64,000 nucleotides of DNA from a virus: positions 52,087-116,086 of the IMG/VR virus record IMGVR_UViG_3300031800_000001; one strand, written 5' to 3'. The notes below the pieces were generated by a model. The model was not told the origin of the DNA, searched no databases, and worked only from the letters and a program-made list of their open reading frames with translations. Made by a program: the position numbers and the translations under genes. Positions within the stretch are counted from its first letter, which is position 1, and every line of letters begins with the position of its first letter. Of the stretch, positions 14,208 to 35,700 are shown in pieces.

Positions 14208-14212
14208 TCAGT

Positions 14213-14464: not shown

Positions 14465-14474
14465 GCTCTTTCCG

Positions 14475-14481
14475 GTGTAAT
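14475..14481 (+). promoter_or_regulatory. GTGTAAT motif, putative late promoter of the neck operon
   Basis: Upstream of the ATG at 14491. Confidence 0.55.
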
Positions 14482-14490
14482 CTTAATTGT

Positions 14491-15000
14491 ATGAAAGCCG
14501 TAGATATTGCAGACCAAATCCACAGAGAATTAGGAAGCCCGACAGACCTAGGCATAGCCGCTATAGCATTTTGGGTACGCACAAACATTGGCGCGCTGAA
14601 TAACTACCTGAATACCAGCTATGCAATTAATCAATCTTCGTATGAAATAGAGAGAGATATCAATGGTACAGCAACCGCAATAGGTATTAATGAAGGGGGT
14701 ATACTCAAAAAAATGTATACAATACACTATTACGACAATAAACTGAGGAGCGTATTATCCGCAGCAACCTCAGATGCGGTTATCGCTTTGTCTTCAGACG
14801 GGTCATCAATTAAAAAGATTAACAAAAACGAACAAGCAAAGCTCTATGCGACCATACGCGGCGCAAGCCAATCAGAATTGGAGCGCATGGTGGGTCAATA
14901 CAAGCTGAACGACGTACAACCATTACAGGTGGCAGGGGACGACGATCAATCGGCGTATATACTTCCGAATAGAGAATATGTAAGAATTAGGAAATACTAA
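14491..15000 (+). CDS. putative head-tail adaptor (neck) protein
   Basis: First of four tightly coupled genes upstream of the tail tube. Size and helical character fit an adaptor; assignment is positional. Confidence 0.5.
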   Translation: MKAVDIADQIHRELGSPTDLGIAAIAFWVRTNIGALNNYLNTSYAINQSSYEIERDINGTATAIGINEGGILKKMYTIHYYDNKLRSVLSAATSDAVIALSSDGSSIKKINKNEQAKLYATIRGASQSELERMVGQYKLNDVQPLQVAGDDDQSAYILPNREYVRIRKY

Positions 15001-15002
15001 TT

Positions 15003-15443
15003 ATGGCGAGCTTAGTATCAGCAGACGAAATCAACTCGTTCACGGGTGATTTTCAGAATTTATTTGACACTTTTAAGAGGTCGATCACGGTGCACAAGGC
15101 ACCTAAAAAGATCATTAACCAAATAAATACTGATTTTTTACATGGTTACGGCGATTCATCTGATCAGGTTAATTATACATATTCTCCGGTGTCTAAAGCT
15201 TTTGATTGCATGGTGCTATACAAAGACAGACAGGAGGCAGACGAAATGGAAAATATTAACTTAACCTATTTCGCCGGAGACATAAGAATAAAGGTCGACG
15301 AAGAAACGAAAGACTACATACGAAACGGAAAAACAGAAAAGATTTCAGTAGACGGAAAAGACTTTCAGCTAATGACTGAAGAATCTGTGAAGTATTTTTT
15401 CGGAATAAAGCTTTATGTTTTTCATCTACAATTTACCAAGTAA
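15003..15443 (+). CDS. putative head-closure (stopper) protein
   Basis: 146 aa and beta-rich, ending KISVDGKDFQL...YVFHL. Position fits the SPP1 gp16/lambda FII slot. Confidence 0.5.
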   Translation: MASLVSADEINSFTGDFQNLFDTFKRSITVHKAPKKIINQINTDFLHGYGDSSDQVNYTYSPVSKAFDCMVLYKDRQEADEMENINLTYFAGDIRIKVDEETKDYIRNGKTEKISVDGKDFQLMTEESVKYFFGIKLYVFHLQFTK

Positions 15444-16030
15444 TGAGAATAAACCCAATAAAAATCAAAAGAAAGATAGTAAGGAACATAAAAAAAGTTC
15501 CTGAAAGGGTTAAAATAGAGGCTCAAAGAAAGTTTAACCGAGCAAAACGAGAAATGATAACTGAATTTGAAAGCCACCCGATTACTCAAGAGCTAGAAGG
15601 CGGACCTATGGGAGGAAACGTCTCTGGCACGCTTGGAGGAGTAGGAAATCTATTTAGTTTCATAGGTTTTCAAGAAGGATCAAATCCAATAGCTACGCTA
15701 AGAGAGATGCTAAATAATTACCGGATCAATATTATGTCACCAAAGATAATTAAAAGAAGTTCCGGGGTAGACTTTCAATTTAGGGTAACTGGCCCAAGTA
15801 TGGCAGAAATTGAAGCAGCAACATATCTAAGTTGGCTTGGGAAAAGTTGGGTAAGAGGCGTAGAAAGAGGTATGACTGGGTTGGGAAACTATTTAGCGCT
15901 GATGGGAGCAATCGGAAGTAGATCAGGAGGGGGTATACAGGCAAAAACATCATATAGGGGAGGAGCCTATAGGCCCACTAAATACATGAGTTCGTTATTG
16001 AGAACGTTCTTTTTAAATTTTAGAAGATAA
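15443..16030 (+). CDS. putative neck/tail-completion protein (HK97 gp10-like slot)
   Basis: Basic protein with GNLFSFIGF and WVRGVERG motifs, TAATG overlap; positional inference. Confidence 0.5.
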   Translation: MRINPIKIKRKIVRNIKKVPERVKIEAQRKFNRAKREMITEFESHPITQELEGGPMGGNVSGTLGGVGNLFSFIGFQEGSNPIATLREMLNNYRINIMSPKIIKRSSGVDFQFRVTGPSMAEIEAATYLSWLGKSWVRGVERGMTGLGNYLALMGAIGSRSGGGIQAKTSYRGGAYRPTKYMSSLLRTFFLNFRR

Positions 16031-16945
16031 ATGAAAGCACAATTTGACAATAAAGTGATGTCCAGCTTCTTGCTGTGGTTCGACCACACGCTGCTTAGAG
16101 AAGGCGAAGCGTTTACGGACATCTCTAGTTGGTTTTACCCCGTGGAGAGCCTACATAATAACCTGTATACATACGGTGCCCCATTCAAGCAGTTCGTAAG
16201 TGATTTTTCTATAACAGGAACCGGCGCGGCATTCGCCAACAGAACAGTACAGATTCCTACCGGAATCTATCTAGATGGTTCGCTCATAGGAACGGGGACA
16301 AGCAATTTTAGTGGCATGAGTTACGAGCAGGGGCAAGTTTATTTTGGCACAGAAATAACAACCCCCGAAACAAGGCTGAGTGGTGATTATGCCGTAAAGG
16401 ATTTCAATGTATATCTAACTAACGAGCCAGAAGAAAAATTGCTTTTTGAGACGAAGTTCCACCTAAGGCCTAAAACCGCCGAAACACAAACAGGCTTAGC
16501 TTCTAACGCGATAACCTATCCAGCTATTTTTTTAAGATATAACGGTTCCCACAGTGAACCATTGGCGTTTGGCGGGTATGACATGACGACCATAAATCTA
16601 AGGGCGGTAGTCTTGGCGGATAATCAATTTAATTTAGACGCTGTTTGTTCCATAATGAGGGACAAGGTAAGAACATTTTTTACGTTATTTGGTACAGGGG
16701 ATATGCCTTACAACACTCTTGGTGACTATAAAAGCGGTGTGCCTTGGAGCTATACCGGAAAGAAAGCAAGTTATGAAGAAAACAGTTACATTTTCATAGA
16801 AAACGTAGGAATTTCTAAATTTTCTAGAGATGTGAACGTTAAGGTAAATAATTTGAACCCGGATGTCTTTAATGGTGTAATTGACTTTGAGGTTACGAAA
16901 CCTAGGTATCCTCGAAAGGCTAATAGAAATCAGGATTTACAATAA
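16031..16945 (+). CDS. putative tail terminator protein
   Basis: Directly upstream of the tail tube. YPAIFL...INLRAVVLADNQFNLDAVCSIMRD...GVIDFEV matches the terminator-fold pattern. Confidence 0.55.
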   Translation: MKAQFDNKVMSSFLLWFDHTLLREGEAFTDISSWFYPVESLHNNLYTYGAPFKQFVSDFSITGTGAAFANRTVQIPTGIYLDGSLIGTGTSNFSGMSYEQGQVYFGTEITTPETRLSGDYAVKDFNVYLTNEPEEKLLFETKFHLRPKTAETQTGLASNAITYPAIFLRYNGSHSEPLAFGGYDMTTINLRAVVLADNQFNLDAVCSIMRDKVRTFFTLFGTGDMPYNTLGDYKSGVPWSYTGKKASYEENSYIFIENVGISKFSRDVNVKVNNLNPDVFNGVIDFEVTKPRYPRKANRNQDLQ

Positions 16946-17004
16946 CAAAAAAAGTTTTCCCTAAAAACTAAAAAATATGTAATAAAAAGAAAGGATTATA
17001 AATC

Positions 17005-18312
17005 ATGGCAAGAAACAGAGTTATTTATCAAAGTGAGGCTCTCTATGTGAGTCAAACACCGGCTGTTAGTGGCTTCTTTACTGACAAAACTGCCGTTGGT
17101 GCAGAAGGATATATCAGCGCTCCGCTGCATCCATCTGGAAACCAAGTAAGGCAGTTGCACAGAATTCAGACCGCTAACTATTCGTTTAACATACCGCGCA
17201 CAGACATTAACCAGTTTGGCGAGTTGGCTGCTATCGACAGAGTTGTAATGGACACTCCCACGGTAGCATTGGACTTCAGTTACATACTAGCAACCATGGA
17301 AAACGAAATGAATCTTGGATTCGTTACGGATGGACATGCTAGCTGCATTTCTGGGATTCTTAATAAGACACAAGACGAGAAAAACTACTTCATCAAGACT
17401 GTTGGTGAGGGTGTTGACGCCGTCGGAGATCTTGGACCCGAAAAAGACAGCATCGCAATCGAAGGAGATTACGAGTTTGTAATTGGAATTGGCAATGGAT
17501 TCATTACCTCGTACACGACAGAGTGTTCGGTGGGTAATTTCCCAACTGTTACAATAAATGTTGAGGGTCTTAACATGACTTTCGAGAGCGGCGTGAGTGG
17601 CGCAAGCCCCGCGGTGAAGCCCGAAAGTGGAACAAGACTTGAGCATTTCAAGTATATTCTTCCGACTACCACAGGCAGCGCCGAGACAGGAATTATGGCA
17701 ACAAGCGCCCTGCGCCCCGGAGACATCACCTTCGCCTTCGCGAAAGCCGATAGAGAATCAGTGCAATTATCTGGTACGCTCTTCGATTCGGTTACCGACG
17801 ACGAGGATACGTATGATGCTCCCGGAGCACACCTCGGAAACATGGATTCCAAAGCACACGCTAAGATTCAAAGCTACAACATCAGTCTAGATATGGCAAG
17901 AGAGCCGATCAACAGACTCGGAAGCCGGTTTGCGTTCTCTCGTGAGATCACATTCCCGATGTCCGTGACCTGTACGATTGACGCTCTGGTGGCCGATCTG
18001 ACCACTGGTAGTTTGTCGGATATCATCAATTGTGATGATTCTTACGACATCGTAGTTAACCTTCTGCGTCCCACAAGCTGCCCCGGCACGCTTACTGATG
18101 GAACCGCAAAGGATATCTTCGCCCAGTATTGGTTGAAGAACTGCAAAGTGAATAGCCAAGCGTTTAGCTCGGATATCGGCAGCAACAAGAGTGTGACTCT
18201 CGAGTTCGCAACTCAGGTTGGTGGACCGAACCAGAAGAACCAAGGCTTGTTTATGAGCGGTATCTCGACTGGATATCTCTCGATGCAAAGAGATGCGAGT
18301 GCTGATTCCTAA
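17005..18312 (+). CDS. major tail tube protein
   Basis: Located between the terminator and the chaperones/TMP. Two internally repeated beta halves (IQTANYSFNIPRTDINQFG / IQSYNISLDMAREPINRLG). Has an upstream AAGGA and is followed by a strong terminator. Confidence 0.75.
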   Translation: MARNRVIYQSEALYVSQTPAVSGFFTDKTAVGAEGYISAPLHPSGNQVRQLHRIQTANYSFNIPRTDINQFGELAAIDRVVMDTPTVALDFSYILATMENEMNLGFVTDGHASCISGILNKTQDEKNYFIKTVGEGVDAVGDLGPEKDSIAIEGDYEFVIGIGNGFITSYTTECSVGNFPTVTINVEGLNMTFESGVSGASPAVKPESGTRLEHFKYILPTTTGSAETGIMATSALRPGDITFAFAKADRESVQLSGTLFDSVTDDEDTYDAPGAHLGNMDSKAHAKIQSYNISLDMAREPINRLGSRFAFSREITFPMSVTCTIDALVADLTTGSLSDIINCDDSYDIVVNLLRPTSCPGTLTDGTAKDIFAQYWLKNCKVNSQAFSSDIGSNKSVTLEFATQVGGPNQKNQGLFMSGISTGYLSMQRDASADS

Positions 18313-18341
18313 GCCGAATTAAGCAACTAAACCTTAACCAG

Positions 18342-18369
18342 CCCCCGGTGAAAACCGGGGGTTTTTTTT
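18342..18369 (+). terminator. rho-independent terminator after the tail tube gene
   Basis: CCCCCGGT-GAAA-ACCGGGGG is a perfect 8-bp stem with a GNRA loop, followed by T8. Confidence 0.9.
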
Positions 18370-18392
18370 ATTTTACAGGTTGTGGTTAAAAT

Positions 18393-18416
18393 GTGTAAAT
18401 CTTTGCAGGAAAAAGG
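18393..18416 (+). promoter_or_regulatory. GTGTAAAT...CAGGAAAAAGG element, putative late promoter plus RBS region
   Basis: Lies immediately after the terminator. A near-identical element precedes the minus-strand gene at 49880. Confidence 0.55.
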
Positions 18417-18425
18417 CTGAAAGGA

Positions 18426-18671
18426 ATGCATGGAGACATGAACAAAGGGGGTGAAAAATCCAAGGACTTCTTAGTATTTCAACTACGTCGCAAGATAGTC
18501 AATCTTTATAAAAATTATCTTTTTATTTTAGAAGATTTAGAAAAGTCTGGCTATGATATTCCAGAAGAAGAGTTCCAAAGAATAAGGAAAAGAATTCTTG
18601 ATTACGGGAATGATACCATAAGGGAAATTGAGGAAAATTTAGATAAATTTGACATTGAGCTAAAGTTATGA
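18426..18671 (+). CDS. small helical hypothetical protein (start may be 18438)
   Basis: ATGA-coupled to the next gene; amphipathic helical sequence. Confidence 0.65.
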   Translation: MHGDMNKGGEKSKDFLVFQLRRKIVNLYKNYLFILEDLEKSGYDIPEEEFQRIRKRILDYGNDTIREIEENLDKFDIELKL

Positions 18672-19651
18672 AAAAACTATATGAATTTGCAGTAACTAAA
18701 GTAGAGTCCGTTGTGAAGAGGGATACTACTACTAACGAAAAAGGCGAGAAAGTAACCACGGAAAAAACCGTGGATGAGAAGGTTAAACATCAATTTTTTC
18801 TCAGAAAACCCACCAGATCCCTTTATGACGAGGCCGAGTTATTTTACGGCATAGAACTTTCCAAGGGCATTAAGGCCGGACTCCTTACGAAGGCCCTTCT
18901 AGCTAAAAGGTACGAAAACGACGGTGGCTCTTTAAGCGACGGTGAAATAGAAAGATACGGCAACTTATATCTAGATTTCTACAGAAAAACAGACGAATAT
19001 CAAAAACTATTAATAAAAGACGAAGAGAATTTAACTCAAGAAAACCGGGACGATATGGAGCGACTGGAAAAGGAATTGACAGATAATCGAAGTACCCTGA
19101 CTCAATTTGAGATGGAACAGCAGAGTCTGTACGAACAGACAGCGGAAGTCAGAGCCAGAAATAAAACCATCTTATGGTGGATTTTAGCACTGTCATATGG
19201 GGGCGACGATAATGCGTATTTTCCCGGCAAAACATTTGACGATAAACTTGCGGTATATGACGAACTAAGTGAAGAGGAAGACGATTTTATAAATACTGTG
19301 ATTCAAAGGCTTACATACTTTGTGAGTTTTTGGTTTGTGGGTAGGGCATCTACACAAGAAGAGTTCGACGCTATGCTTAGGGAACAAGGCCTACAAGAAA
19401 TTGAAGAAGAAGAAGAACAAGAAGACCTTGATGCACAAGAAGAGCTCCCAGTAGAAGATGACACAAAAGCAACTCAAGATATAGTCCTTGAGAACGTGGT
19501 AAGTGAAGAGAAACCCGCGGAAGAGAAACCCGCCGAGGTTAAGCCTAAAAAGAACAAGAAAACAAAAAAGAAAGCTCCCGTAAAGAAAGAGCTTAAGAAT
19601 GATGATGATAATAATCCTGAAGAACCGACGGAGCAGCAAGAGACAGAGTAA
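18668..19651 (+). CDS. putative tail assembly chaperone (G-like)
   Basis: Lies between the tail tube and TMP. Acidic coiled-coil with a low-complexity E/K tail; positional inference. Confidence 0.55.
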   Translation: MKKLYEFAVTKVESVVKRDTTTNEKGEKVTTEKTVDEKVKHQFFLRKPTRSLYDEAELFYGIELSKGIKAGLLTKALLAKRYENDGGSLSDGEIERYGNLYLDFYRKTDEYQKLLIKDEENLTQENRDDMERLEKELTDNRSTLTQFEMEQQSLYEQTAEVRARNKTILWWILALSYGGDDNAYFPGKTFDDKLAVYDELSEEEDDFINTVIQRLTYFVSFWFVGRASTQEEFDAMLREQGLQEIEEEEEQEDLDAQEELPVEDDTKATQDIVLENVVSEEKPAEEKPAEVKPKKNKKTKKKAPVKKELKNDDDNNPEEPTEQQETE

Positions 19652-19673
19652 CAATGGAAAACTAACCTGAACT

Positions 19674-19699
19674 CCCCCGCCTCAGGTGGGGGTTTTTTT
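19674..19699 (+). terminator. rho-independent terminator-like hairpin between the two chaperone genes
   Basis: CCCCCGCC-TCA-GGTGGGGG stem (one G-U pair) followed by T7. Confidence 0.75.
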
Positions 19700-19705
19700 A
19701 TACAT

Positions 19706-20728
19706 ATGACCAAAGAGAAAGAAAAAATGAACAGTGCCTCACTGAGGCTTCTTTATGCTGATATAATAAAGGGCTACTCCAAGACCGAGGACAAGAGATA
19801 CAAAGCCACATACATAAAACACCTCGGCACTATTGACGCCGCCGGCATGGACGAAATAAAAAGTAGGTACTACGAAGAAGCTAAAAAAGAAGGGCTACCA
19901 ACAGAAGATGACAAGCTCGAGTATCTCCATAAAGAGGGGGACTGGACGAAACAAGACGAGGCTAAGTTGGATGGATTAAGAAGCTGGGTCAAACAACTAA
20001 AAGTAAATAAATCCAAACTCTTCTTGGAGAGAGACAAGAATCAATTAATTAACCAAATAAGAGAAACAGAAGGCGAAATACAAGTAAAAGAAAACAGAAG
20101 GTTAGAGTGGATCGGGATGACTTGCGACTCTTATAGCTCAAAAAAATCAAACGAACACTATATATTTCAATCATTATTTAAAAATTCCGAATGTCTTGAT
20201 CATTTGCTCTCTGCAGAAGAATTCGACGAGTTGAGCACTCAGGAAATTTTTTATTTAGTTAAGCTTTACAATGGAAAAATGGAGCCATTTTTTCCGAGAA
20301 ACCTAAAAAAAATAGCTTTATCAGGTTTTTTTCTTAATTTCTTTTATTTGTGTGACGACAACCCAATGACATTCTTTGGTGAACCAGCGGTAAGCTTAAC
20401 CTTTTATCAGGCTGAACTTTTCGGCCATGCGAAATATTTTAAATCTATACTCCAAGATTCGAAAAATAAACCCCCACATGATGTAATGGATGATCCAGAC
20501 GCCATTATAGACTGGTATGAGTCCAGCAAAGCGTCTCAGGCTGCGTTTGATAAGGTCAAGGATACCGGTAATGTGGGCGGAAGCTCAATAGTGGGTGCAT
20601 CCAAGCAAGAAATGACAAAACTTGGGGCTATAGACGACGGTGAAAAATTTATTGATTTGGCCCAAGAAGCTATGAAGAAAGGCGGATCGCTTAATATGGA
20701 GGAGCTTATAAAGTTACATGGGCAGTGA
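19706..20728 (+). CDS. putative tail assembly chaperone (T-like; start may be 19727)
   Basis: Immediately upstream of the TMP. Has a coiled-coil region and a 'PPHDVMDDPDAIIDW' motif; positional inference. Confidence 0.55.
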   Translation: MTKEKEKMNSASLRLLYADIIKGYSKTEDKRYKATYIKHLGTIDAAGMDEIKSRYYEEAKKEGLPTEDDKLEYLHKEGDWTKQDEAKLDGLRSWVKQLKVNKSKLFLERDKNQLINQIRETEGEIQVKENRRLEWIGMTCDSYSSKKSNEHYIFQSLFKNSECLDHLLSAEEFDELSTQEIFYLVKLYNGKMEPFFPRNLKKIALSGFFLNFFYLCDDNPMTFFGEPAVSLTFYQAELFGHAKYFKSILQDSKNKPPHDVMDDPDAIIDWYESSKASQAAFDKVKDTGNVGGSSIVGASKQEMTKLGAIDDGEKFIDLAQEAMKKGGSLNMEELIKLHGQ

Positions 20729-20760: not shown

Positions 20761-23700
20761 ATGGCGGATAGTTTTATCACACTAGGAACAAGGTTAGATA
20801 GCGCATCGCTGCAAAGCACTTTAAGGCAAATAAACAGCGCTATTACCCGAGTAGAAAGGAAAGGGGTTAACATTAAAGTTGACTCTGGGAAATTTACTAG
20901 ACCCCTTGGGAAGATCACTGGTGCCACAAATGAATTCACAAGATCACTCGAAGCATCAAATGCGCGTGTTTTAGCGTTTGGAGCTTCTGCCGGGGCAATT
21001 TTTCAAGTTCAAAGGGCGTTTGAATTTTTACTTAAAAGCACTATTGAGGTCGAGAAAAGACTTCAGGATGTCAATGTAATTTTGGCGCAAACAGACCGAG
21101 GCCTCGCCAAGTTCGGAAACAACCTTTTCTCGATAGCTCAAAAAACGGCACAGAGTTTCGATACTGTCGCTGAAGCAGCGACAGAATTAGCTAGGCAAGG
21201 CTTGACAGTCGAAGAGACCCTTCAGAGGACAAACGACGCCCTCATTCTTACGAGGCTTTCCGGTATGGATGCGGCAGCATCAGTTTCTTCCTTGACAGCA
21301 GCATTAAATACGTTCAACAGGGAGGCGTTAACTTCTACTCAGGTAATTAATAAGCTTGCCAATGTGGATGCGGCGTTTGCTGTAAGCACAGACGATTTAG
21401 CCCAAGCCATGAGGCGCGTGGGAAGTACCGCTCAGGACGTTGGCGTATCCTTCGACCAACTTCTTGCAATTACAGCCTCTGTTCAGCAAACAACTGCTCG
21501 CGGTGGCCCCGTAATTGGTAACGCATTAAAAAGTATATTCACAAGAATCCAAAGAAAAGACACTCTTAATCTTTTAGAAGAGTTGGGGATAAAGGTGAGG
21601 GACTTAGAGGGGCAAATGCTACCCGCAATGAATGTTCTTGGCAATTTGGCCAAAAAGTTTCCCGAGCTATCTAAGGCTCAACAAGCTCATACTGCTGAGG
21701 TGACTGCTGGCGTATTCCAAATGAATAACTTAAGAGCGATACTCGCTGACCTTGGGAAAGAATATTCGATTTACGATAAAGCCGTGCAGATATCGACAGG
21801 GTCTACAAATGAAGCAATATTAAGAAATGAGATGCTCAACAAAACCCTCGATGCCCAAGTAAAAAAGACGATGGCTTTAGCCACGCAGGCAGCCAAGAAA
21901 ATAGGAGACCTAACCTTAAGGCCGGTCTCAGAGAGAGTGGTTGGGATCATGCAGAAAGTTTTGGGCGATATTAATGATAAAGACACAAATGACATAGGCG
22001 GAAAGATAGCGCAAGGGATGCTGTCCGGAATTGGAAATTTTTTATCGGGCCCGGGGCTACTTTTGTTAACTGGATTCCTTGGAAAACTTGGAATGAACCT
22101 AGCTAAATTCGTTAAGGAATCTGGAGCTCAATTTATGGGGCTGAACACGGCTGCGGTTCAACAAAAAAGCATACAAGAAGGAATAGCCAGAATATTGCAA
22201 TCTCAGCCACAACTTATAGCAAGGGCAGCGACATCCACACAGGCAAGAGTGGTGGTAGAAAGAGAAATAATCGGTATACTCGAACAAGAGACTCTTGCGA
22301 TGCTAAACTTGGAGAAGGTTGCCCAAAGAATGGCTGGCATGATGGTAAGAGGCGGGGTAACCGTAAGTGGTTCAGGACAAGTGGCGGCACCGGCGTATTT
22401 GAGGGGGAGAGGACCCAAGGCTGCGGCGAGGGGGACCGGCATTTCGGCACAAGGGCACATACCGAATTTTGCTAAAAAAAGCGAAGTAAGCGAAATAATA
22501 AGCGCAGCCGAGGGCGGATACAAAGCGGGGCAAATAAAACAAATGAAAATGCCCGGGCTTGGAACAATGACCTACAACTCAAGAGAACAGGTTAAACATG
22601 TTCCCGGCTTTGCTCAGCCATTCATTAATCCACCACTGCACTCAAAGGCCGGCAGGCAACATAGGGAAAAATCAGTGGCTGAAACCGGTGTCGATCCTTA
22701 TGCAGTTCCAAATTTTGCCAACCCAGCGATGCTTTCCTTATATGCTCGAGGCAGATTGGGGGTGGGTACCATAGGTATGCCCGGCAAAGGAGCCGCTGCT
22801 TCTTTAGAAAGTTTTGGAATAGGGAGATTTTATAAATCCGGGCCCAAGGTTCCCAAAGGTCAAAAAAATGTATTAAGGACTGCTTATGATCATGCAATAG
22901 CGGGTCATGGTGTATCAGCCGTAAAGGGGAAAATAGCGTTAGGAGAAATAGGAGAAGTAGCAGTCGCGAGAGCTACAATGCCAAGCGATGTTGCAAAACG
23001 ATTTTATAATGATCTATTGTCTCCGGCGATGGGCAAGACAGCGTACAAGGGTTTTACTGATGCACTTGGAGGGAAAACCAAGGCGGCGGGCATAGCGCAA
23101 GATATAGTATACCATCAAAACGGAACAGCGCGGTCATTCCAAGGGGCAAGAGAAAGGGCAATGGAAGTGCTTGCAAATAATCCCGCCGCTAAAGGTTCAT
23201 TTTTCGCAAAAGCAGAATTGACTCATTCTACTTTGTTAGAAAAAGCCCTTTTTGAACGCGGTGCCGGTCAGCATCTTCTGCCATTCAGCAAGGTGAAGAT
23301 GGGGCAAGGAGAGACAATTCTAGACGCAATAACTGTAAAAGGAGGAAAAGTAATTGGACCTGCTGAATTCAAACCAACTTTTCATGCGGGAATGTCCGGC
23401 AGAGATGCCAGAGGAAGCCTGTCGTACAAGTCGTTATTCTCTTCTGACTCAGGTAAAGAGGGCGGACTATTGCATTTTTTACGGTCAGGAATGGAAAAGA
23501 ATATTGCCCGCGGTGGCTACAAAGACAAATCCGGTCAATTCCATGGCCCAGAGAAGTTAAGAGGCGATCTAAACAAATTAGATGATTATATAAGTACCGC
23601 AAAAACGTCAGACTTCGCTAGAATGCAAAGAGTTTCCCAAGGTGAAATTACGCTTGAGGGAGCTAAATCCGCAACAGCAATAAAAGATATTTTTGGCAAG

Positions 23701-26700
23701 GATGTAATGAAACTCCTTGAATCGACCCCGTCGGCATCAAATTATGATAAATTAATGGCGCATTTTGGTGCGGCCCAAGGCTTCATTCCTAATCTCATGA
23801 TGCGGGGATCAATGAAAAAGAAATTAGCCACTGCGAGCACGAGTGGAAAAGGAAATATTTTCGATTTTGATGGGACGCTAGGTATACCCCCGAAAGGGAT
23901 GGTTACCACCCCAACAGGCATGAGAAAAATGCAAGAATCAGATACGTGGCATGGTTGGTCTGTCGGTCATATGAAACCAACTGAATTAGCAATGGCAGCG
24001 GCTAAAAATAAAGAGCCAATAACAGTTTTAACCGCAAGAGGGCAAGATTCAGTTCCGTATATCCAGAGTTGGTTAAAGGCCCAAAAAATTCCATACAGTG
24101 AAGTAATAGCTACTGGAAGCAGACAATACCCCAAAGGGATAGAGAAAACCCACCAGAAGAAGGCCTATGAAATTTTTGAACGCCCACATTTACGAAACGC
24201 AAAGTTCTATGAAGACTCACGGGCAAACGCATATTACGCGGCACTAAGAGGTGCAAGCAAAGATATGAATATACAGCCCCGAATAGTAGATTTTGGCAGC
24301 CGTTGGGGGCAGGTTAATCCAGCTGGCCAAGGGCTCATTCCGAATTTCAGTAAAGATTCATCACTAACGGCTGCGTTTAAAAGGGAAAAGAAAGCCACCG
24401 GGTTACCCGAAAATCAACTTTATGCAGCTTCCATAGATACTCCAGAATACAAAGGTTTGGCGGTAGGAAATAAGAGAGATGAGCGGACAAGGACGGATCT
24501 AATTAAAGCTGTCAAGTCTCACCCGAACCCAGCAAGAGCAGGCATGAAGGCAAGCGGGGGTTATATACCCAACTTTGCCGCAGATAGCGTGGATTACATG
24601 GCCATGACATCAGGAATGATGATGGCGGGAATGATGATGCAAATGGGCGGATCCAGCGCTCAAGAAAAACAAATGCTGGCCGACCAAAAGAGTGACTTTA
24701 GAAAACAAGAAAATATTAAGAAAAAAGCAAGAGCAGCCGCTAAAAATCAAGAGAGAGCACAAAAAAGCCAAGAACGAGAAAGAACTAGATTACAAACAGA
24801 AGTCAAGACTGCTGAGCGCGAGGGACAGCAGGCGACCAAGGCGCAATTGCAGGCCAAACATGGAACGGCAACCACTCCGGGGGGGCCGAGAACGGGAGGC
24901 GTAAAACAAGCTCAAGCGGCGCAGCAAAGAGCAGCAGATAGAATAGTCCGAAGAGAAGTAAACAGGGCAATAATGCACGGTGGCACGCCAGCGACTTTGG
25001 CGGGGGGTGCCCCAATTCCCACTGGCGGTACACCCGCAAGAATTGCGGGACTGGGAATGGCTGGGGTACACGCTGAAGCTGGCGGGGGGCGGGGCATAAA
25101 CCCAGCCACTGGTCTACCACATACGGCAGCATACAACGCGAAAATCGAAAAGCTAAGAGGGGTTGGTTTCGGGAAAGCGCAACAAATAATTGCACAATCC
25201 ACACAGACTACAGGAACAACCCCAAGGGGAGCCGTCGCTGTACATGGTGGCGACAAAGCAGCCAAGGACCTAACCAAAAAAACCTTACTCCTTCAAAAGG
25301 CGAGAGAGGCTGAAGCCCGCGCCGCTGATCGAGTAAAGGCAGCAAGCGACAAAAAGACCGCCGCGGCAGCAAAAATTATTGCGCAAGATAAAGAAATAGC
25401 AAAGTCCTCAAGGAAAGTAACCGCCGCAAAGGCCGCAGAAGCAAAAGCGACAGAAAGGGCCGCGGCAATGAAGCCGGACAGAAAAGCTGCCATCAGTAAG
25501 TGGGTCAAAGGAAAAGGTTTTGGACTGGGAATAGGCATTCAAATGATGGCTGGAGTGGCCGAACAATTTGTGGGAGGCAAAGGTGAAACCCCAGAAGAAA
25601 GAGCAGAAAAAGCAAAAGTTAGAGGGGTTGGCACCGCGGCAGGAATGGCCGGAACTGGCGCAATGATTGGCGGTGTGCCCGGCGCGCTCATTGGCTTAGC
25701 TATTGGTTCAGGGCTAGCCGTCATGGATCATCAAAAAGCCAGCAAGAAAACAGCGGAAGACTACGCGAAAGCTATTCAAAAAGAGACAGAAGCAAGAAAG
25801 AAAGCCTTACTTGGCGCGGAGTCATATATTAAATTGCAGGGGAGATTAACCGGCATGTTTAATAGGGGCGCTGGTCCTGCCGAACAGGGGTTGATGCGCA
25901 GACAAATGAAAGAACAACTCATGCAGGTTGAGGACGCGGGGCTAAGAAGAGGGCTAATTGAGGCGGCTGGTGATGAAAGTAAAATGCGAGAAGCTATGGC
26001 TAAAGTGCAGGAAACTATTAGCATACAGGAAAAGAAAGGTGGGATAGGCGTATTAGCGGCAAAGGCAGCAGAGGCCGGTGGGGGAACGCGGACACCGCTA
26101 ATGAAGGACTTGGCGAAAACCCTGTCTTCTGCATTCGAATTAAAAGGAATTAAGACTTGGGAGCTCATGGGTAAATCTGGCGCTGAGCTAACGACTACAC
26201 TCGAAGGGATGGGCGTTGGTGCTAAAGAAGCCGCAGACATGATAGCAGCACTTGGAGAAGAAAATCAAGGTCTTATACCGCAGATAATGGCTCAAGCCCA
26301 AGGATATGAAGAGCTCGAAGCAGAAACTTCAAGATCTGTAGAATCAATAGAAAGAATGGCGCTAGCTACGGCTGATCTAAACTATAGGTTATCACAAATA
26401 TCAAATTCATTTGAACATTTAATGAATGTATCAAAGCAGTTCTTTGACCACAGTCAGAAAGTGACCAAAGCGTTATCAGGCTCCATCACGGGAGATGACA
26501 CGATTGGTAAGGAGCGCAGAGAAAGGTTTGGGCTTACCGGTAATATACTCAAAAACATCGAAACTAACACCTTAAAAAATACCCTGTTGCAAAAAAGATT
26601 TCACGACGCAATCCTTAAGATGACCATGGAAAAAAGTAGCGCGGGAGGAAGCTTGCCGGGGGGATTGCAGCAACTTCAAGTCTTGGCGCGGGAAATGATA

Positions 26701-29700
26701 GTCGGCCCAGCTAGTCTTGCCGCGGAGGCATACAGAGAAATAATCGGTGATAAGGAAGGAACAGGGGGGCTCGGAAGAGTGACGGCTAGAAAACTAGAAG
26801 ATGCACTTTCCAAAGCAGAAAATGAAATAAAAGAAAATAGTTTAAAGCTTGCCCAATCAAACAGGCTTCTGATAATTCAAAATCAGCTTGCAGTATCAAA
26901 CAGGTCGTTTCAAAGAAGAAGAACCCTGCAGGAATCCATGACAGCAGGGGGAGCTTTTGGCGGGGGAGGCATTATCGACGCTTTGAAGAACTTAACGACT
27001 GTGGCGGGGATTCCAACTAGACGCGAAACTTCAAGAGTGGCGATGATGCAGATGCAGGGGCTAAGAGATCTAGAAAAAATGGGATTTGATTTTGCAAATG
27101 GAATAGGTAAAGCCATAAAAGAAAACCTTCTAGAAAGAACCTTCAGGGCAGAAGCTCCTGATGCTTTAGAGGCTCTTGGAATGAGTCCGGACAACGTAAG
27201 TAAAATCATTAATAGCAACTTTAATCCAGACGTATCAAAAAATATAATAGAAAGCATGAATTCTGCTCAAGGCGGAATGATGGCGCAGGTTATAGACTCA
27301 GCTAATTTATCAAAAATTGCACAAGAGGAAAGACAATACAAAGCTAAACTTCTAGAGGCCGAGTTCAAAAACAGAAACATGTTAGTGGAGAGCTTGGGTG
27401 CAAATGTTGACGTAACTGCTTTGCTTATTGGCAGTAATTACGATCTTATAGTTTCAAATGAGAAACTTGGCGAAGATTCAATGGACGCGCAGGAATTCGG
27501 CGCAAGGGAGCGGAGAACTAACGATCAAATTTATAAAGCTGCGATAGACACTGCGATGAAAGGGGCTGTGTCAAAAATGGGCGAAATCATGGTTAAGGCG
27601 AACCAAGGGTTCATGCAGGCGGTAGAGGTATTTAGGGGGGAACAAGACCTACAGCATACCAGAATAAACCAAGAAAAAGCCTTTGCCTCTTTAGCAGGTA
27701 AAACAGCAGGTGCCGAGGATATGCTGAGCAGCTTGAGCAGGGGGGAAAAATTCGAAATGACTCCCCCCAAGGCAGAAGAGATCTTCGACAAATCAGGTTT
27801 TACGAGGGCGTTGAGCTGGGTCCTGAGGCACGAAGCTGCGTTTTTGGGAATGTTTAGCCCGACTGAGACCATGACGTGGGAAAACCTTACCGAGAGCTTG
27901 GACACCTCGGGGGTTATTGGGGTACGTGGACATGATGTCAAGGCAAGTGCCTTCGACGAAAATATGATGGCCTTCATGAAGAGGATGCAAAGGGGCGGAG
28001 GCGAAGAGGATAAGCTGAGAATGAAGGCTGGCTTTGAGGCGTATCGATCCACTTTGACTGATGCAAATGTCCCTCAGTTTGAGCAAATGTCGATATCCAT
28101 GGTAAGAGCACAGGAGGGCCTGCTGATGGCCTTTGCTAAAATAAGCGAAATAGCAGATAAGCAGGGACTGATCGAAAGAATAGAAGACCCCGGAGGAGGA
28201 GCAAACATTATACGCGGTGCTCTGCCCTTGGACTTAGCAGATTGGCCAAAAATCGCGGAGTTTATGGGTGCAACCGCCGATCCCGCCGAGGCGATGAGGC
28301 AAATGAAAAAAGCATTAAGCGAAATGGTTTTCGAGGGTGATGCGGGAAAATGGCAGCCAAACATGATAGCGGAATTATCCAACTTGTCGGAAGTCGTAAG
28401 GTTAATGGGAAGAGAAAAGGGATTCGAAGCGTATGAACTAAAAGCAGACCCTGCGAAACTTCTTACAGCATTATTGGCTATACAAACAGCCGTGATCGGA
28501 GTTCACCCGAGTCAACAGGGTCAGATATATACCAGACGAGAAGGAAGCGTAATCGGACACGGTACGGCGCAAGGACAAACATTCGAACAGGCTGTTCAAC
28601 GTGGTGAGCGGACATCTAGGGAGTTTTGGAACGAAATACCAGTCTTTAGTCAGCAACAACCGTTGCCAGAAGGCGAATATGAGAAGATGATGGGGGCGGT
28701 TAGCTCCATGATGGAGGATTACCGCTCAGCAGGGAGGCTGTTATTTTCCAATTTTCAAAAGACCTTTAAGGAAGGGGGAACGGTAAATACCGACATTGCT
28801 AAGCAACTTAAGCGCTCTATAGATACTCTTGAAGGGAACGAGGGCAGGATCAGAACAATCTTAGCAGCCTTGGCTAAAAGAACCGGCGGAGAGGAGGGGT
28901 TCTTTGAGACACACGATGATCTATTACCTCTCTTGGACGGCTTTGACACAATAACAGATGAGTTTCTTGCCATGCTTAGGGCAATTATTGATCCAGACAA
29001 AGGGATTGTAGTAGATAAAAAATTAGCGGAGCAGATAGCCGATCTTTTGAAGGACACACTCCCCCCCCTCAAACCATTCCGGGCAGGACAGATATATACT
29101 GGAAAGCCGATTCCGGACAGGCCGGAAGGCGGGGGTACCGGTGATCTTGGGAAAGCATGGGCAACTGCGTTTAGCACGAAGGTAAAAGATGATTTAAAAA
29201 ATTGGAAGATGTCCATGGATCCCGCGGGGGAACTTGGATCCGCCATGAGCCAATTCGAGGGAACGGGGCCCGAGTGGACCGATGCACTCGGCGTTCTCAG
29301 GAGCGTTGTTACCGCCCTTGACGAGCTAGACCTTACGATATCAGCAGACCCACTTGAAACTCCTTTATTGGCTATACAGCAATCGATGGACGCCTTGAAG
29401 AAGATTAATACAAACGGCAACGAAGACATAAGAAACGCTTTCAACAATAAAGAAGACGTAGTTATAGAGACTCTTAGAAACATACTCGAAGCTATACTAT
29501 CCGACGAATCTACTTCATCAAGTCAACGAGAAGAAATAAGAAAAGCACTCAATCTGTTGCCGGATGCATACAAAAGGACAATGGAGGATATAGCAGGAAG
29601 GTCTGGCACAAGAATGATAAGAGACGAACTTCTCAAGCTCAGGCAAAGAGGCAACAACGGGACCCCACTGTCTCCCCCGCTTATACCGGGTAGTATGCTT

Positions 29701-32700
29701 GCTGGCCAAGTACGACGAGGGACGCAACAAACTTCTCGTCCACTCACCACAATGGCTAGACAAACATTTGGTAAATACGGAAGAGCATTCTTAGGAGGAA
29801 ATAAAGACTATAAGGGGCCAAGAAGCGGATTGCCAAGCGCAAACAGCCTTTTAGGCATCAAAACTAGTTTTAAGAATATTCCTGATCCTAGCAAGATAGA
29901 TGACATGATGAGGGACATACAGAAAGCGTCTCCAGATATAAAGGACCCCGCAAAAAGGGCAAGTCTGAGCTATCTATCGATGCTGAAAACAGGGCAAAAA
30001 ACAATATTTAATGTAGCACAACAAGTTGCGGAACGGTTAAGGGGCGACAACACGCTAATGATTGAAGAAATTCATAAATTGGCACCGGTTTTGGGCGATC
30101 TACCTTTCCGCGAATTAGAAGAAGGTTTAAAAGCCGCGAACAAAGATATGTCCGCCGTAGTTAGGGATCAAACCGACGCCACGAGTAAAGCAGCTGGTAT
30201 GGCAAAAACGCTAAGTAAGCACACTATGGAGATGGCCAACATTTTCATAAATCAGAATCTGCTTGCGAACTTCAGGGGGCCTCAACAGATCGACAAGGCA
30301 AGAAAAGTTGGGAAGCAATGGATGGATACGCTAAAGGAGGGGATTCCGGACATTGGTGGTAAGATGGATCCTTCGCGCCTCGGCCCCGAGGGTTTGAAAC
30401 CCGGTACTTACAAAGGGGGTTTGTTTGGCGGTAAACTGAACCAAGATGGCTTGTGGCGACGGGCAGCAGCGAGAAAAGAAGGGGACCCATTCATCCCGGA
30501 CCGCACCCGTGACTATGAACACTCAATGATGGGCCCCGGTAGTATATGGCAACTCTCACCAACAAGGGGCGATGACACGTTTGCTAATAAGCGAGACATG
30601 GCGTACAGATTTTTGGAGAAGCTAAAGCAGGGCAAGGCTCATCAACGGATGATGGCAGCACCCGGCGGAACTACCGGGGGGCCACCGGCACTTGGATTTC
30701 AGCCGGGGCGGGAACACACGATATTGGGTGGCGAGACAGCTGGCGTGATAGCGCAAAAATTCGGCGTCTCTCTGGAGAATTTAAAAGAGGCAAATTCCCA
30801 AATTGCAGACATTAATAGAATTAATGCTGGGGACAAAATGAATATCCCGGCCCAATATAGTATTGAACACACGCTGGGGCAGAAACTCACCGCCAATCAA
30901 CAAAAGAAAATTGCTGAACAACTCGACAAACAATTTAAAGAAGGCGTAGTCTACCATAACGAAATGCACAAGGCAACTGTAGCCCGGAAAAAAATAGCAG
31001 AGAACGCTAAGGAGATTGCAGGAATAGAAGAAAAAATAAAAAACAGAACGATTGAGGCTAGCAAAGCACAAGACAAATTAAAGGCTTTATACGCTCAGAG
31101 AGTGATGATTGAATCGAAGCTAAACGAAAAGGAAAAATCGCTGGCAATCCAGAGTTCGAAAATTGGGGACGATAATATAAGAGCGCGGCATCAAGCGGTG
31201 GTATTAAGAGCAGCTTTAGAACAGAGAGCTATAAAAGAAAGAACAGACCAAACGGCCATGCTCCAAAAAACCGTAGATGTGCATGGTGGCAGAGCGCTGC
31301 TCCCCGAGGAGATAAAAGACCCAAGAGCAAAGGCTGCCGCGGACCAAATAGCGATAAATGAGGCAGCAAACGAGCAGGGCCAGCGGTTCGTTGACTCTTT
31401 ACAAGCAGAAAGAGATGCTTTGCTTCAAGCCAATGCCGCGCTTGAAGGGTTCTCTAAAGCAATTGGAATTTCCTCAAAAGATTTGCAAAACATGTCTCCT
31501 TTCGAGCTTAACCTTGAGCTTATAAGACAAGAGGGTTTGCCAAGACAAAATTTATTGGATGCGATGCGCAGCCCAAGAATGCCACAGCCGGGTGGCAAAT
31601 TTGCCGCGCAGACATTTAGCGCAATTTCACCATCAAGAGTGGGGGAAGCGCAGCAAAAAAATCTCAAGGAAGAGATGGAGAAAATTTTACGCATCGAAAA
31701 AGAAGCAGCTGCGGGACCAAGAAAAATACATCTCGCAGAGAGCAAGGTGGCGGAAGCAAAAATCATCACGGCGGGTTTTATGCGGGAACCGGAATTCAAA
31801 GCTTTTGAGAAAAGCTCGGGGGCTTTGAAAACTGCGGAAAATAAGAGGGTGTCTGAGGAGGAAAAGGTGGTTACCTTGCTCGTCGCCAAAGGTGAACTAC
31901 TGAAGAAGGAGGGCGACAATGCAAAAGCTCTCGACGCCTTGGGAGAGGAGATTGAGAATGCAAACACAGCGGTAGTGATAGCAAGGGGAGTTGAAAAAAC
32001 CGCCATCGATAAGCATAACGCAACATATGCCGAGTACATAAATGTTATAAAGGCAGGAGAAGATGCTGAAAATGAATTAAACAAAGCAAAACAATCACAC
32101 ATTGACGCGCTGGGCGCTCAAGGAGTAATTATTAGAAACTGGGGGTCGGTAGCTGAAGCAGCTATAGAAATACAAAAGAGATTTGTAACTGCAGAACACG
32201 TGAAGAGGATGGAGCAACTCGATACGCAAATAGCTAGCACGACAATGAGTTTAGCCCTAATGGACGACCCAAAAAAATTCAGAGAATTATTAGAATCAAC
32301 GAAAAAGCTAACAGAGGCCCAATTAAGGCTAGCGGCAAAACAAGCCAGACTAGAAGAAGCAGCAGGCATAGGAACTGCTCAGGACACATACCAAAGAGAA
32401 CAGGATGTAACCCGTCAGCAACTAAGAACGGGAAAAATAGGCGTCTGGGAAGCGTTTGGAGCGGATACATTTGAAAAAGGCGAAGCGATGTCAAGAGGAT
32501 GGAAAGAAAGGGTCCTCGACGACATGATCGAAATAAGAGAGGGAATGATTTCGTCTTTCTCAGACGGTTGGGCCGCTTTCGCGCTAGAGGGCAAAAGCGC
32601 ATCCGAGGTAGCGAAACAGTGGGGAAGAGATTTTTTACGGATGATAAATCAAGCGTTCTATAACGCTACGATAGGTAGATTTATGGGGAACTTGATGAGT

Positions 32701-35700
32701 GGCGGCTTTGGAAGCTATGGGAGACCGAGCTTGCCGAGACAACAGTCAGGCGGAGAACTCCATGGTCCTTCTCATTCGAAGGGGGGTATCAAGCTCGAGG
32801 CAGAAGGTGGCGAATTCATAGTTAGAAAAAGCGAAGTCAGAAAACCCGGAGTGCTGGGTCATTTACGCGAGATAAATGAAGGACGAGTTTTTCAGCAGGG
32901 CGGCCCAGTGGGGATAAATAGGAATATTTGGCGGCACCCAACTACTTGGCCAGATCAGCAACCAGTTATGCCGGGATGGGGCGGAGGCCGGCAATTAGGT
33001 GGAAAATTCCAAGGTCAACAGAACTGGGCTGGGCAAAAAGTTCTGCCCAATGCCGCGGGTAATCCCGGGGGCCAACATGGAATTTTTGCTAATGACTTTG
33101 CCCCCCCGGCATTTCATCATAGACAATCTGAATTAGAGATGATAGACCTATTTAATCAAAGAGCGGGGGCAGCGGGTAACCCATTCAATCTTCAGAAAGG
33201 GAAAGGTGCCGCATTTGCGAAAAATCGAATGGACAACATGATGCAAGCCATTGCTGGAGGTGGTTACCTTGACAATGAGCACACGCTGTTGGGTTTTGGG
33301 CATCGAATTGGCCCTAACGGCCCCATGCTCCCCTTGCCCGCCAGACTTAACGAGAAAGAACACGCAGCCAGAGAACAGCTACAATTTTTTCAGGATGAAA
33401 ACCCTCTTGCCTTTAATCATCTAAATCAGTGGTGGAGAAAAAATAAATCCGGATGGACTAACCCACAGGTTTATCAAGAAGGTGGCCACGTGATGCCGCT
33501 GGGCGCACCGGGCTTCTCTATAGCAGAAAAAAGGGAGGCATTTAAGAATCAAACACTTCGCGATCTTAAGAGACTCAAGATGGATCACCCACGCGGCTGG
33601 GACATAGAAGGTTGGCCCCCAATGTGGACGCCGTGGAAACAGTTTGACAACGAGCAAGAATACAAAAAAGCTATCGTCGCACAACGAAGGGCTGACTGGC
33701 AGGCCGACATGAATCGTGAGGACGAGATACAAGGGATGAGGAAAGCGGGATTTGGTCCAAAAGGCATGCTGTTGCGCCGCGACCCATGGCCCGGGCCCGC
33801 GCCGGTGGGACCGCCTTTCGTGCCCGGTCCGGCCATGTTTGCACCCGACCCCCGCAACAATCAGGGCGGTGCGGGTATGCTAGATCGGATGGAGGCGATG
33901 CGACGCCAGATTGAGGCGGCGCGGGGTAACAGGCCGGAGTTGGTAAGGCCAGACAAATATGAAGATGGCGGCAGGGTTACGCTTTCAAAGCCCACCGTTG
34001 CAAACGTACCGAAATTAGACAAGAATTATATATTAAAGCTGGCTAATAACCCTCACGTATTGAACTGGATGAAAGATCCAAATACTATAGAAAGATTTAA
34101 CCTTAAAGGGAATGAAACATTTGAGGGGGCTTACATGAAGATGATTCGTCACGCCGAAAAGATTAAATTAAAACCGGGAAGAATGAACCAGACGTTGTCG
34201 GGGGCGGGTATCCCGCTATGGAGAGACGGTATGACTCCCGACGTAGCGAATAAGATGATGGGTGCCGGGTGGATTAGACCAGAAGCTTTTGGAGTATTAA
34301 ACGAATGGTTTAACATAAGGGATGGAGGCAGGGGGGGAATGTGGGCGAGGGATGAAAAAAATACGGGTAGGTGGGGGGGCGGCGTGAACGCGTTCTACAC
34401 CGGCGAGAGCGAAATAAAAGACCAACAAAGAGGTCTTAATAAAAATTTAACCAGCATGGGTCTCATGTCGCCAAATCCTAAACCCGGTCAGATTAAGCCC
34501 CTTAAGGTAGACGGCTGGGATGGAGACGCTACTACTGCGGCATTAACATTATTCCGAAACAAAAAAGGTATACCGATCCCGTCACGTGCAGCAACCAATG
34601 ACGAGATACTCGCCCACCCCACGTTTGCCCCACACAGAATTCCATTGCCGGGGAAGCTCCGCGACAAGAAGACTAGAGATGCATTAGGTATGGTTGGTCA
34701 TCACCCGGGGATGTCCAGAGCCGGGTGGAGAGGTGTGGCACCTTGGGATATGATGAAGGAAAAACGTTTTAAATCGACGAACCGCGCTGAAGTGGAGGTA
34801 CATCCATATACTGGCATGGTCGACCAAGACGGGCCCGGGGTGAGGGAGGGGTGGGAGTTGGATCCCAAAAGCAAATGGTACCGCGAGGAGGAAGGTTTTC
34901 CGTCAAGATACGAAATAATTCCCGGAAAAGGACTGGGTCACGTGGTAAAGGTGGGAGAAAGTATTACCGCCATAGGTCAACAGTACAAAAAAGAAATGAT
35001 GTTGTCTGGTTCAAAAGACGGATCGGCGACCACCCTTTCTTTGGCGCTGCAGGCGGCTAATCCAAAATTAATGGAAACATTAAAACAGAGAGCTGGGGGG
35101 AAACCTGATATTAGCAAATTCCTTATGCCAAATGACGTTGTTCTTATACCGGGAGGGGGAAATTTGTTCGATCCAAAAGCAAACATGAAAGCTGGTGAGC
35201 TTGATGGAAAACCGTTCCCGGGCTTTAGGCGAGGATGGTGGGATCAATTCAATAAGCAACATTCATCATTCAAGATGGATTACATGGAATACGGGGCTGG
35301 CGGTGTTGTTTGGGATCCCAGAAGTTCAGCCTCTGTTCCAAATCGATTTACAAGACAATCAAGACTTCAAATTCCCGGAACCCCCGTGTCGGGTATAGAG
35401 GGTAACCAATTGCTACCGCAACACCGAGCATGGAACAATAGACTCTCGGCATTTTGGGCAACAACTTTCGCAGCTTCTGGCAACAACGTACCGTTAGCTA
35501 CCCAAAGATTTTACGATGGAATTCAGGACCACATGACTGCTGGACGCGTGAGGGCAGCGGGTGGACAGCACGGCGTTTCTCCCGGTGGATATAGATATAC
35601 AAGGGGGCCAGCAGTAAGCACCCTAGTGGGAGGTAATATTGATGACGGTGGAGTAGCAGGAATGGGCCCGCCAGCAAGAGGTCATCGTATAGCGATGAGA

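Follow-up and report, generated by a model that had tools for sequence, protein, structure and literature searches.

Why a bacteriophage tail tape measure protein should contain what looks like a complete phosphatase is the question raised by a stretch of viral DNA of 64,000 nucleotides (IMG/VR record IMGVR_UViG_3300031800_000001, positions 52,087 to 116,086), referred to below as the window. The parent record is 116 kb long and is estimated by CheckV to be 71% complete. One uninterrupted frame on the + strand of the window (20761-38874) encodes a TP901-type tail tape measure protein of 6,037 amino acids (aa), and a HAD-superfamily phosphatase domain lies in the N-terminal quarter of this protein (Table 1). 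Judged from its sequence and predicted fold, the domain is probably an autonomous and active Mg2+-dependent HAD phosphomonoesterase with a minimal cap, which belongs to the Pnkp neighbourhood and would be delivered by the tape measure. That neighbourhood, the phage HAD_PNKP clade, includes the 3'-phosphatase of T4 Pnkp, Pnkp1 and the small 'PnkP' phosphatases of T1-like, Aeromonas and Vibrio phages.

The carrier is recognizable as a TP901-type tape measure from its PF10145 core, its giant size and the position of its gene after the presumed tail tube and chaperone-region genes, and twelve PHROG tape-measure families match the open reading frame (ORF; E down to 6.5e-50). The same giant ORF, of at least 4,522 aa, is present on a related contig (L002). 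A preliminary description of this DNA had reported four HAD motifs in order, located inside the tape measure between two IPN motifs. Both observations hold: translation of 23797-24321 gives NIFDFDGTL, ITVLTARG, QKKAYEI and KFYEDSRAN as quoted there, and within the single ORF the domain is flanked by GFIPNL and GLIPNF. The features by which the HAD superfamily is recognized, namely motif I, the Thr of motif II together with the Lys of motif III, the acidic pair of motif IV and a Rossmannoid fold with a flap, were all found. No compositional anomaly marking the HAD cassette was found. Internal translation from the ATGs at 23797-23802 is unlikely, as there is no Shine-Dalgarno sequence and the Met is not kept in a second related contig (L003).

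Homology to phage 3'-phosphatases is apparent when profiles are compared. Among PHROGs, the domain matches phrog_1238 ('phosphoheptose isomerase', E 2e-4) and phrog_415 ('polynucleotide kinase', E 7e-4); of the six family members, five match phrog_415 (best E 1.1e-4) and four match phrog_1238. A tblastn search of phage genomes with the domain yielded nothing of use at E ≤ 0.01; at E ≤ 10, the 50,697 phage genomes yielded 20 weak matches, 19 of them on small genes annotated as polynucleotide kinase/3'-phosphatase. The proteins encoded under these matches are stand-alone HADs of 158-178 aa which match PF25109 (HAD_PNKP) with E values of 1e-9 to 1e-23, and a profile of them matches Pnkp1 (PDB 4XRP, E 4.5e-17) and T4 Pnkp (5UJ0/1LTQ). 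When the seven-member tape-measure family was aligned with these small phage HAD_PNKP proteins using hhalign, the probability was 96.7% (score 65.9, E 3.8e-10), and 96.5% in a second run (E 8.8e-10), with the alignment reaching from motif I past motif IV over about 130-140 columns. Since 30 column-shuffled alignments scored only 8-17 and at most 0.6% (0.2% for the reversed alignment), the four-motif match is not due to chance. In each of three phage genomes, the family profile singles out exactly the small HAD_PNKP genes (E 4e-6 to 2e-4), while the genomes of T4 and T5 contain no match to it (T5 at E ≤ 10). In the ESM Atlas (recognition 3049), the domain has only small viral HADs as neighbours, at 0.93-0.94; they are of the HAD_SAK_1, T5 deoxynucleoside monophosphatase (dNMPase) and acid phosphatase B types. 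The domain falls below the Pfam gathering threshold for HAD_PNKP, with homology to accepted members of that family found at the level of profiles.

A HAD Rossmannoid fold, which the preliminary description had expected, was predicted by AlphaFold (AF2) from an alignment (A6) of the seven family members and 16 diverse IMG/VR HAD_PNKP sequences (predicted local distance difference test (pLDDT) 87.3, predicted template modelling score (pTM) 0.84). The topology is canonical: strand 1 with motif I is followed by a flap hairpin (model residues 22-31), three short helices and strand 2 ending at Thr1091, and then by a helix, strand 3, a helix from Lys1133, strand 4 ending at Glu1151-Asp1152, a helix and strand 5. 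The cap is as short as had been proposed, as only the β-hairpin flap and the three short helices lie between motifs I and II and nothing is inserted between motifs II and III. The significant matches of both Foldseek and VIA-align are all HADs. Foldseek matches in the PDB are to Lem4, Pnkp1, T4 Pnkp and GmhB, the best being to the HAD effector domain of Lem4 (E 5.4e-4), and matches of the model in BFVD are viral HAD and PNK proteins. VIA-align placed the T4 Pnkp phosphatase at the top (5UJ0, Z 15.0, 2.2 Å over 128 residues); Pnkp1 came next (Z 14.3), followed by a tier near Z 10 made up of AphA, VSP, GmhB and MDP-1. Because PNKP-type sequences are in the alignment, the model is by construction tilted towards Pnkp among the HADs; for the HAD fold as such, support comes from sequence-based lines which are independent of the model. 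Five independent lines (PHROG, tblastn, hhalign, ESM and the AF2 model) converge on a HAD of the PNKP neighbourhood, and tblastn, hhalign, the PF25109 and PDB matches of the matched genes and VIA-align identify T4-Pnkp-type 3'-phosphatases as the nearest recognizable relatives.

The residues expected to carry out catalysis are strongly conserved. D1035, D1037, T1039, T1091, R1093, K1133 and D1152 are invariant in an alignment of 23 sequences, and Asp1035 and Asp1037 are invariant in 28 of the 28 sequences aligned. Against T4 Pnkp, with the numbering checked on the T4 sequence, Asp1035 corresponds to D165, Asp1037 to D167, Arg1093 to R213 and Lys1133 to K258. The pair Glu1151-Asp1152 is placed opposite the D-D of the small HADs and of a distant fragment (P0008) by hhalign and by the family alignment, and is shifted by one residue in a larger MAFFT alignment. 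The core catalytic residues are kept even in P0008, which is 26-33% identical to other family members (BLASTP). Comparison with L002 indicates purifying selection on the HAD domain, whose ratio of non-synonymous to synonymous substitution rates (dN/dS) is 0.28, against 0.34-0.46 for the body of the tape measure and 0.13 for its core (aa 1-560).

The HAD domain is rare in the databases searched. A search of 1.84 billion representatives gave three true relatives only (P0003, P0004 and the fragment P0007), of which P0003 and P0004 are TP901-type tape measures of 2,400-2,500 aa with 53% identity; P0005 and P0006, repeat proteins that sum many weak matches, were rejected. L002 and L003, from IMG/VR, are 85% identical and have the same giant tape measure; L005 (48-54% identity) came from a metagenome scan, and word-index searches contributed P0008 alone (DFDET, LTAR, K, DD). 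P0008 has no close relative in IMG/VR, and its location on a GOS scaffold hints at a marine origin.

In these relatives a motif of the form G-[FYL]-[IVLF]-P-N-[FL] flanks the HAD domain on either side, and in five proteins it marks the boundaries exactly. The upstream motif stands directly before the HAD cassette in P0003, P0004, L002, L003 and L005, and the downstream one is kept as GFIPNF or GFFPNF in P0003, P0004, L005 and P0008. Since the module preceding the HAD in P0003 (aa 773-1244) follows it in P0004 (aa 928-1237; 68% identity), the predicted cassettes are reordered at G-x-x-P-N-F boundaries. The upstream cassette also differs between tape-measure lineages. In L005 it is a HIGH-motif nucleotidyltransferase (L005:42-878, + strand; FGPFTKGH ... 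ISATLAR; PF08218, E 5.7e-5; PF16581, E 0.014), which would add another cytoplasm-type enzyme to this system of motif-bounded slots; the HAD cassette of L005 is at 876-1406. Searches starting from this nucleotidyltransferase ended at unrelated multi-domain proteins of 830-870 aa without a HAD.

A degenerate DNA pattern scan of IMG/VR extended this picture with stand-alone sister HADs and two further embedded domains. The small stand-alone proteins of the sister family match phrog_415 (E 1.6e-10) and align to the tape-measure family at 95.3% (hhalign). L109:10761-13136 (+ strand) is another TP901-type tape measure (PF10145, E 1.8e-20), with a sister HAD at about aa 666 (IFDFDDTLA ... VLTAR ... 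FLDDN; hhalign 96.2%). L118:193-8424 (- strand) is an ORF of 2,744 aa with no Pfam or PHROG match and an embedded HAD at about aa 1835 (VFDFDDTSAF ... ILTARP ... FADDA), which aligns to the small stand-alone HAD family at 98.3% (hhalign). The candidate phosphatase is best described as a shuffled cassette among related tape measures. Before the HAD of L109 stand Gly-rich 'GHAQGG...EGGEFVVPK' motifs, which resemble motifs found in the C-terminal third of the window tape measure (for example, near aa 3994-4030).

Several results weigh against an active, delivered enzyme of the Pnkp type. Pfam gave no family at E ≤ 1 for the domain of the window and no HAD family for any member of the tape-measure family, and nothing relevant came from NCBIfam, nor from the PDB when its sequences were searched with the domain alone or with a four-member profile. 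With PF25109, nothing in the record matched at E ≤ 10, while the same model matches T4 pseT with E 7.9e-61; the HAD_SAK_1 model (PF10307) found nothing in the record either. Aligned directly with T4 Pnkp alone, the family reached 38.6% in hhalign, over motif I only. The confident fold needs the 16 HAD_PNKP sequences, as the AlphaFold model made with family members only was poor (pLDDT 44). The putative domain is too divergent for curated models.

The active site itself provides a further objection. D165, D167, R176, R213, D254 and D277/D278 are reportedly essential for the T4 3'-phosphatase, according to mutagenesis by Wang, Zhu and Shuman. In the tape-measure family, R176 aligns with G/N/Y and D254 with K/N/T/G/S, so that neither has a conserved equivalent, whereas almost every small stand-alone HAD retains the corresponding R (in H-R) and D. 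The alignment of the cap loop is uncertain, and a functional substitute, such as the conserved Arg of the hairpin, is conceivable. The core phosphoryl-transfer set is thus complete, and the Pnkp-specific residues on the substrate side are not demonstrably present.

Partners for end repair were also sought. Neither an AAA_33 kinase (PF13671) nor an Rnl2-type ligase (PF09414) was matched in the 116-kb record, which is 71% complete, and the tape measure contains no credible Walker A motif and no HIGH motif. The search of the record with PF09511 (Rnl1) also gave no match, but the control genomes were blank as well, making it uninformative. Finally, each virion would bring in no more than a few molecules of the enzyme, and this part of the tape measure would have to arrive in the cytoplasm and refold there.

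If the domain is active, it presumably follows standard HAD chemistry. Asp1035 would attack the phosphate to form an aspartyl-phosphate, and Asp1037 would protonate the leaving group and activate water. The phosphate would be held by Thr1091, Arg1093 and Lys1133, and Mg2+ by Asp1035, the backbone of Asp1037 and Glu1151/Asp1152. Tape measures fill the tail lumen in few copies, leave it at infection and can carry working peptidoglycan hydrolases. As part of such a protein, the HAD would be built into the tail lumen in a few copies per virion, be expelled into the cell envelope or the cytoplasm just before the DNA, and so be present pre-made ahead of any phage gene expression. We infer delivery into the host solely from the position of the domain inside the tape measure.

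The relatives make a 3'-phosphorylated nucleic-acid end, or a nucleotide, the most likely class of substrate. Nucleic-acid ends are a reasonable candidate, although their chance falls somewhat short of even; free nucleotides are possible but distinctly less probable, other targets are rather doubtful, and a domain that is idle or not delivered is less likely again. The preliminary description had suggested, as one example, the healing of tRNA cut by host nucleases such as PrrC and RloC. This proposal is weakened by the lack of conserved equivalents of T4 R176 and D254, by the silence of the HAD_PNKP model and by the failure to find a kinase or an RNA ligase in the 116-kb record or the tape measure. 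Its other suggestion, dephosphorylation of nucleotide signals, is chemically unlikely where the signal is a cyclic nucleotide, given what is generally known of HAD phosphomonoesterases.

The alternative that survives best, although unlikely, is that the HAD is active on nucleotides or small metabolites and works on the pools of the host during entry, either as a nucleoside or deoxynucleoside monophosphate (NMP or dNMP) nucleotidase like T5 Dmp or in metabolism of nicotinamide adenine dinucleotide (NAD) or nucleotides. The ESM neighbours, which include clusters of T5 dNMPase type and acid-phosphatase type, are consistent with this, as are the missing Pnkp-specific R176 and D254, the absence of any kinase or ligase partner among those sought and the hint of nucleotide chemistry in the nucleotidyltransferase cassette upstream in L005. 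T4 Pnkp itself also hydrolyses 3'-mononucleotides. Kinship with T5 Dmp is nevertheless unsupported, as hhalign gave only 3.8% and there was no match in the T5 genome at E ≤ 10. At the sequence level all neighbours are of PNKP type, and the number of molecules injected seems too small to change bulk pools.

It is improbable that the HAD is not delivered as an enzyme at all, but acts only in the producing cell (in assembly, or after excision at the IPNF motifs) or is an idle spacer of length or bulk. The flanking motifs could be processing sites and the cassette is optional and shuffled among relatives; in addition, folded domains of 18 kDa fit poorly in the lumen of a tail tube. Nevertheless, core catalytic residues that are invariant down to 26-33% identity, and in two tape-measure lineages, would be unexpected of a spacer, and the dN/dS of the HAD is below that of the tape-measure body. 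The working peptidoglycan hydrolases embedded in tape measures provide a precedent.

Of slight probability is activity outside the cytoplasm or on non-nucleotide targets, as a protein phosphatase (Legionella Lem4, MDP-1) or an envelope or sugar-phosphate phosphatase (GmhB, AphA) aiding penetration: the best Foldseek E-values are to Lem4, GmhB, AphA and MDP-1 occupy the next structural tier, phrog_1238 is matched and a LysM domain in the same tape measure means that part of it acts in the envelope, but Pnkp-type structures reach Z 14-15 against about 10 (even if the model is built in a way that favours them), searches of Pfam, NCBIfam and PDB linked the domain to none of those families at the sequence level, and about 2,100 residues separate the HAD cassette from the LysM region.

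The reading preferred here, a Pnkp-type phosphomonoesterase carried by the tape measure, can be set against known systems. Closest in sequence are the small stand-alone phage HAD_PNKP phosphatases (PF25109; phrog_415), such as UTQ78246.1 of Aeromonas phage Aer_P220, gp18 of Enterobacter phage F20 ('PnkP, partial') and VPR_132 of Vibrio phage Vp_R1. They resemble the tape-measure HAD in size, in the four motifs (D-x-D-G-T-L, L-T-x-R, K and an acidic pair), in the order of strands and helices and in a Trp of the short cap. Unlike it, they are encoded by free-standing genes in early or replication regions and are not parts of virion proteins; identity is about 16-21%. Their genes adjoin those for a P-loop ATPase, a metallophosphoesterase and a DNA ligase. 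In both Aer_P220 (L006, 472-3318) and F20 (L008, 312-2540) the HAD_PNKP gene lies between a metallophosphoesterase/DNA-repair exonuclease and a P-loop ATPase ('dNMP kinase'), and in Aer_P220 a DNA ligase follows the set. This neighbourhood in cultured phages looks like a split set of genes for end healing and sealing. We know of no assay of the activity of the small stand-alone proteins.

The best structural matches of the model are the C-terminal 3'-phosphatase of T4 Pnkp (PseT; 5UJ0, 1LTQ) and Capnocytophaga Pnkp1 (4XRP/4XRU), which share its minimal-cap HAD architecture; equivalents of T4 D165, D167, R213, K258 and D277/D278 are present in the tape-measure HAD. Unlike T4 Pnkp, however, the tape-measure HAD has no fused or neighbouring 5'-kinase that could be found, and T4 Pnkp is a cytoplasmic early protein and not a component of the virion. 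T5 Dmp (PF26880), which is among the ESM-feature neighbours, is also a small viral HAD of the very start of infection, being the product of a pre-early gene. It differs in that its hhalign match covers motif I only and in that it is expressed from first-step-transfer DNA and not carried in the virion.

Tape measures of mycobacteriophage TM4, T5 (pb2) and staphylococcal phages have peptidoglycan hydrolase motifs. Like these proteins, the tape measure of the window has an enzyme domain inside it, and it also has a cell-wall-binding LysM domain. The known cargo acts on peptidoglycan and the envelope, whereas the HAD is a cytoplasm-type enzyme from a lineage of nucleic-acid repair. The preliminary description was not aware of a HAD as a described tape-measure domain, and in full-text literature searches no paper was found that describes a tape measure with a HAD or phosphatase domain.

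Polyvalent proteins are giant multi-effector polypeptides proposed to come in together with the DNA and to be active ahead of gene expression (Iyer, Burroughs, Anand, de Souza and Aravind, 2017, PMC5512222). That paper stresses embedded metallopeptidases separating the domains, and contains no occurrence of tape measures, phosphatases or polynucleotide kinase. Unlike polyvalent proteins, the window protein has short G-x-x-P-N-F motifs as separators and no recognized peptidase.

Taken more broadly, the giant tape measures of uncultured marine phages might be modular injection vehicles, in which motif-bounded slots hold interchangeable cytoplasm-type enzymes (a Pnkp-lineage 3'-phosphatase in the window, and a nucleotidyltransferase as well in a relative) that enter the cell just before the DNA. 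The phosphatase would then heal 3'-phosphate ends before expression begins, be they in the phage genome as it enters or in host RNA that defence nucleases have cut. This proposal is tentative. If it is true, the inner protein of the tail also ferries cytoplasm-type enzymes, beyond the known cell-wall-cutting domains, and the concept of effectors that arrive with the virion (T4 Alt, P1 Dar, N4 RNA polymerase, polyvalent proteins) would extend to the tape measure. A step in the first seconds of infection would then depend on removal of phosphate. The motif-bounded slots would also be a possible natural scaffold for loading cargo into phage tails. As the HAD cassette is small, self-contained and easily expressed, its activity is directly testable.

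Table 1. Positions in the window of the HAD domain, its motifs and boundaries, and other features of the tape measure region
Feature	Position	Strand	Remarks
HAD-superfamily phosphatase domain (predicted)	23845..24300	+	aa ~1029-1180; hhalign, AF2 model, Foldseek, VIA-align, ESM neighbours, dN/dS
Motif I, DFDGT	23863..23877	+	aa 1035-1039; Asp1035 putative nucleophile, Asp1037 putative general acid/base; aligned to T4 Pnkp D165/D167
Motif II, VLTAR	24025..24039	+	aa 1089-1093; Thr1091 at end of strand β-2 (model), Arg1093 ~ T4 R213
Motif III, QKKAYE	24154..24171	+	aa 1132-1137; Lys1133 ~ T4 K258; starts helix at model residues 105-114
Motif IV, FYEDS	24205..24219	+	aa 1149-1153; Glu1151-Asp1152 at end of strand β-4 (model)
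Upstream boundary motif, GFIPNL	23779..23796	+	aa 1007-1012
Downstream boundary motif, GLIPNF	24331..24348	+	aa 1191-1196
First boundary motif, GHIPNF	22453..22470	+	aa 565-570; start of cassette region
Last boundary motif, GYIPNF	24559..24576	+	aa 1267-1272; end of cassette region
Variable linker from boundary motif to domain	23797..23844	+	aa 1013-1028; length and sequence differ among relatives; pLDDT <50 in both models
TP901-type tape-measure core	21136..21696	+	PF10145 PhageMin_Tail match, aa 126-312, E 3.6e-33
Presumed tail tube gene	17005-18312		Among eight upstream proteins without a PHROG match

The surroundings of the HAD cassette are largely unfamiliar. Between the first and third boundary motifs lies a large cassette (22471-23778, aa 571-1006), with AVPNF near 22696, which is 85% conserved in L002. 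It could not be identified as a Pnkp-type kinase or as any known domain: Pfam was blank, hhalign to T4 and phage kinases gave 0.6% or less, ESM Atlas recognition was low with no named neighbours, and it has neither a Walker A nor a HIGH motif. Despite several motif-bounded modules, the recognizable ones in the tape measure are the HAD, the tape-measure core and LysM only.

Eight proteins sampled upstream of the tape measure (7469-20728) gave no PHROG match, and the presumed tail tube protein had no tblastn match in the 50,697 phage genomes searched. The source phage is of a very divergent, uncultured lineage. For a mini-cassette with the boundary motif (aa 554-660) and for the tail tube protein, no relatives turned up among cultured phages, and neither therefore gives a clue to the host.

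Features related to the cell envelope occur further downstream in the tape measure. The LysM peptidoglycan-binding domain lies in the middle of the protein (30718-30849, aa ~3320-3363, E 7.7e-7) and is adjoined by weak PHROG matches to transglycosylase and endolysin; no peptidase was recognized in the tape measure by the Pfam search. On the 3' side of the cassette region, the sole strongly hydrophobic stretch of the 6,037-aa protein (25648-25725, aa 1630-1655) is Gly/Ala-rich and zipper-like, and may be a membrane-inserting part of the tape measure.

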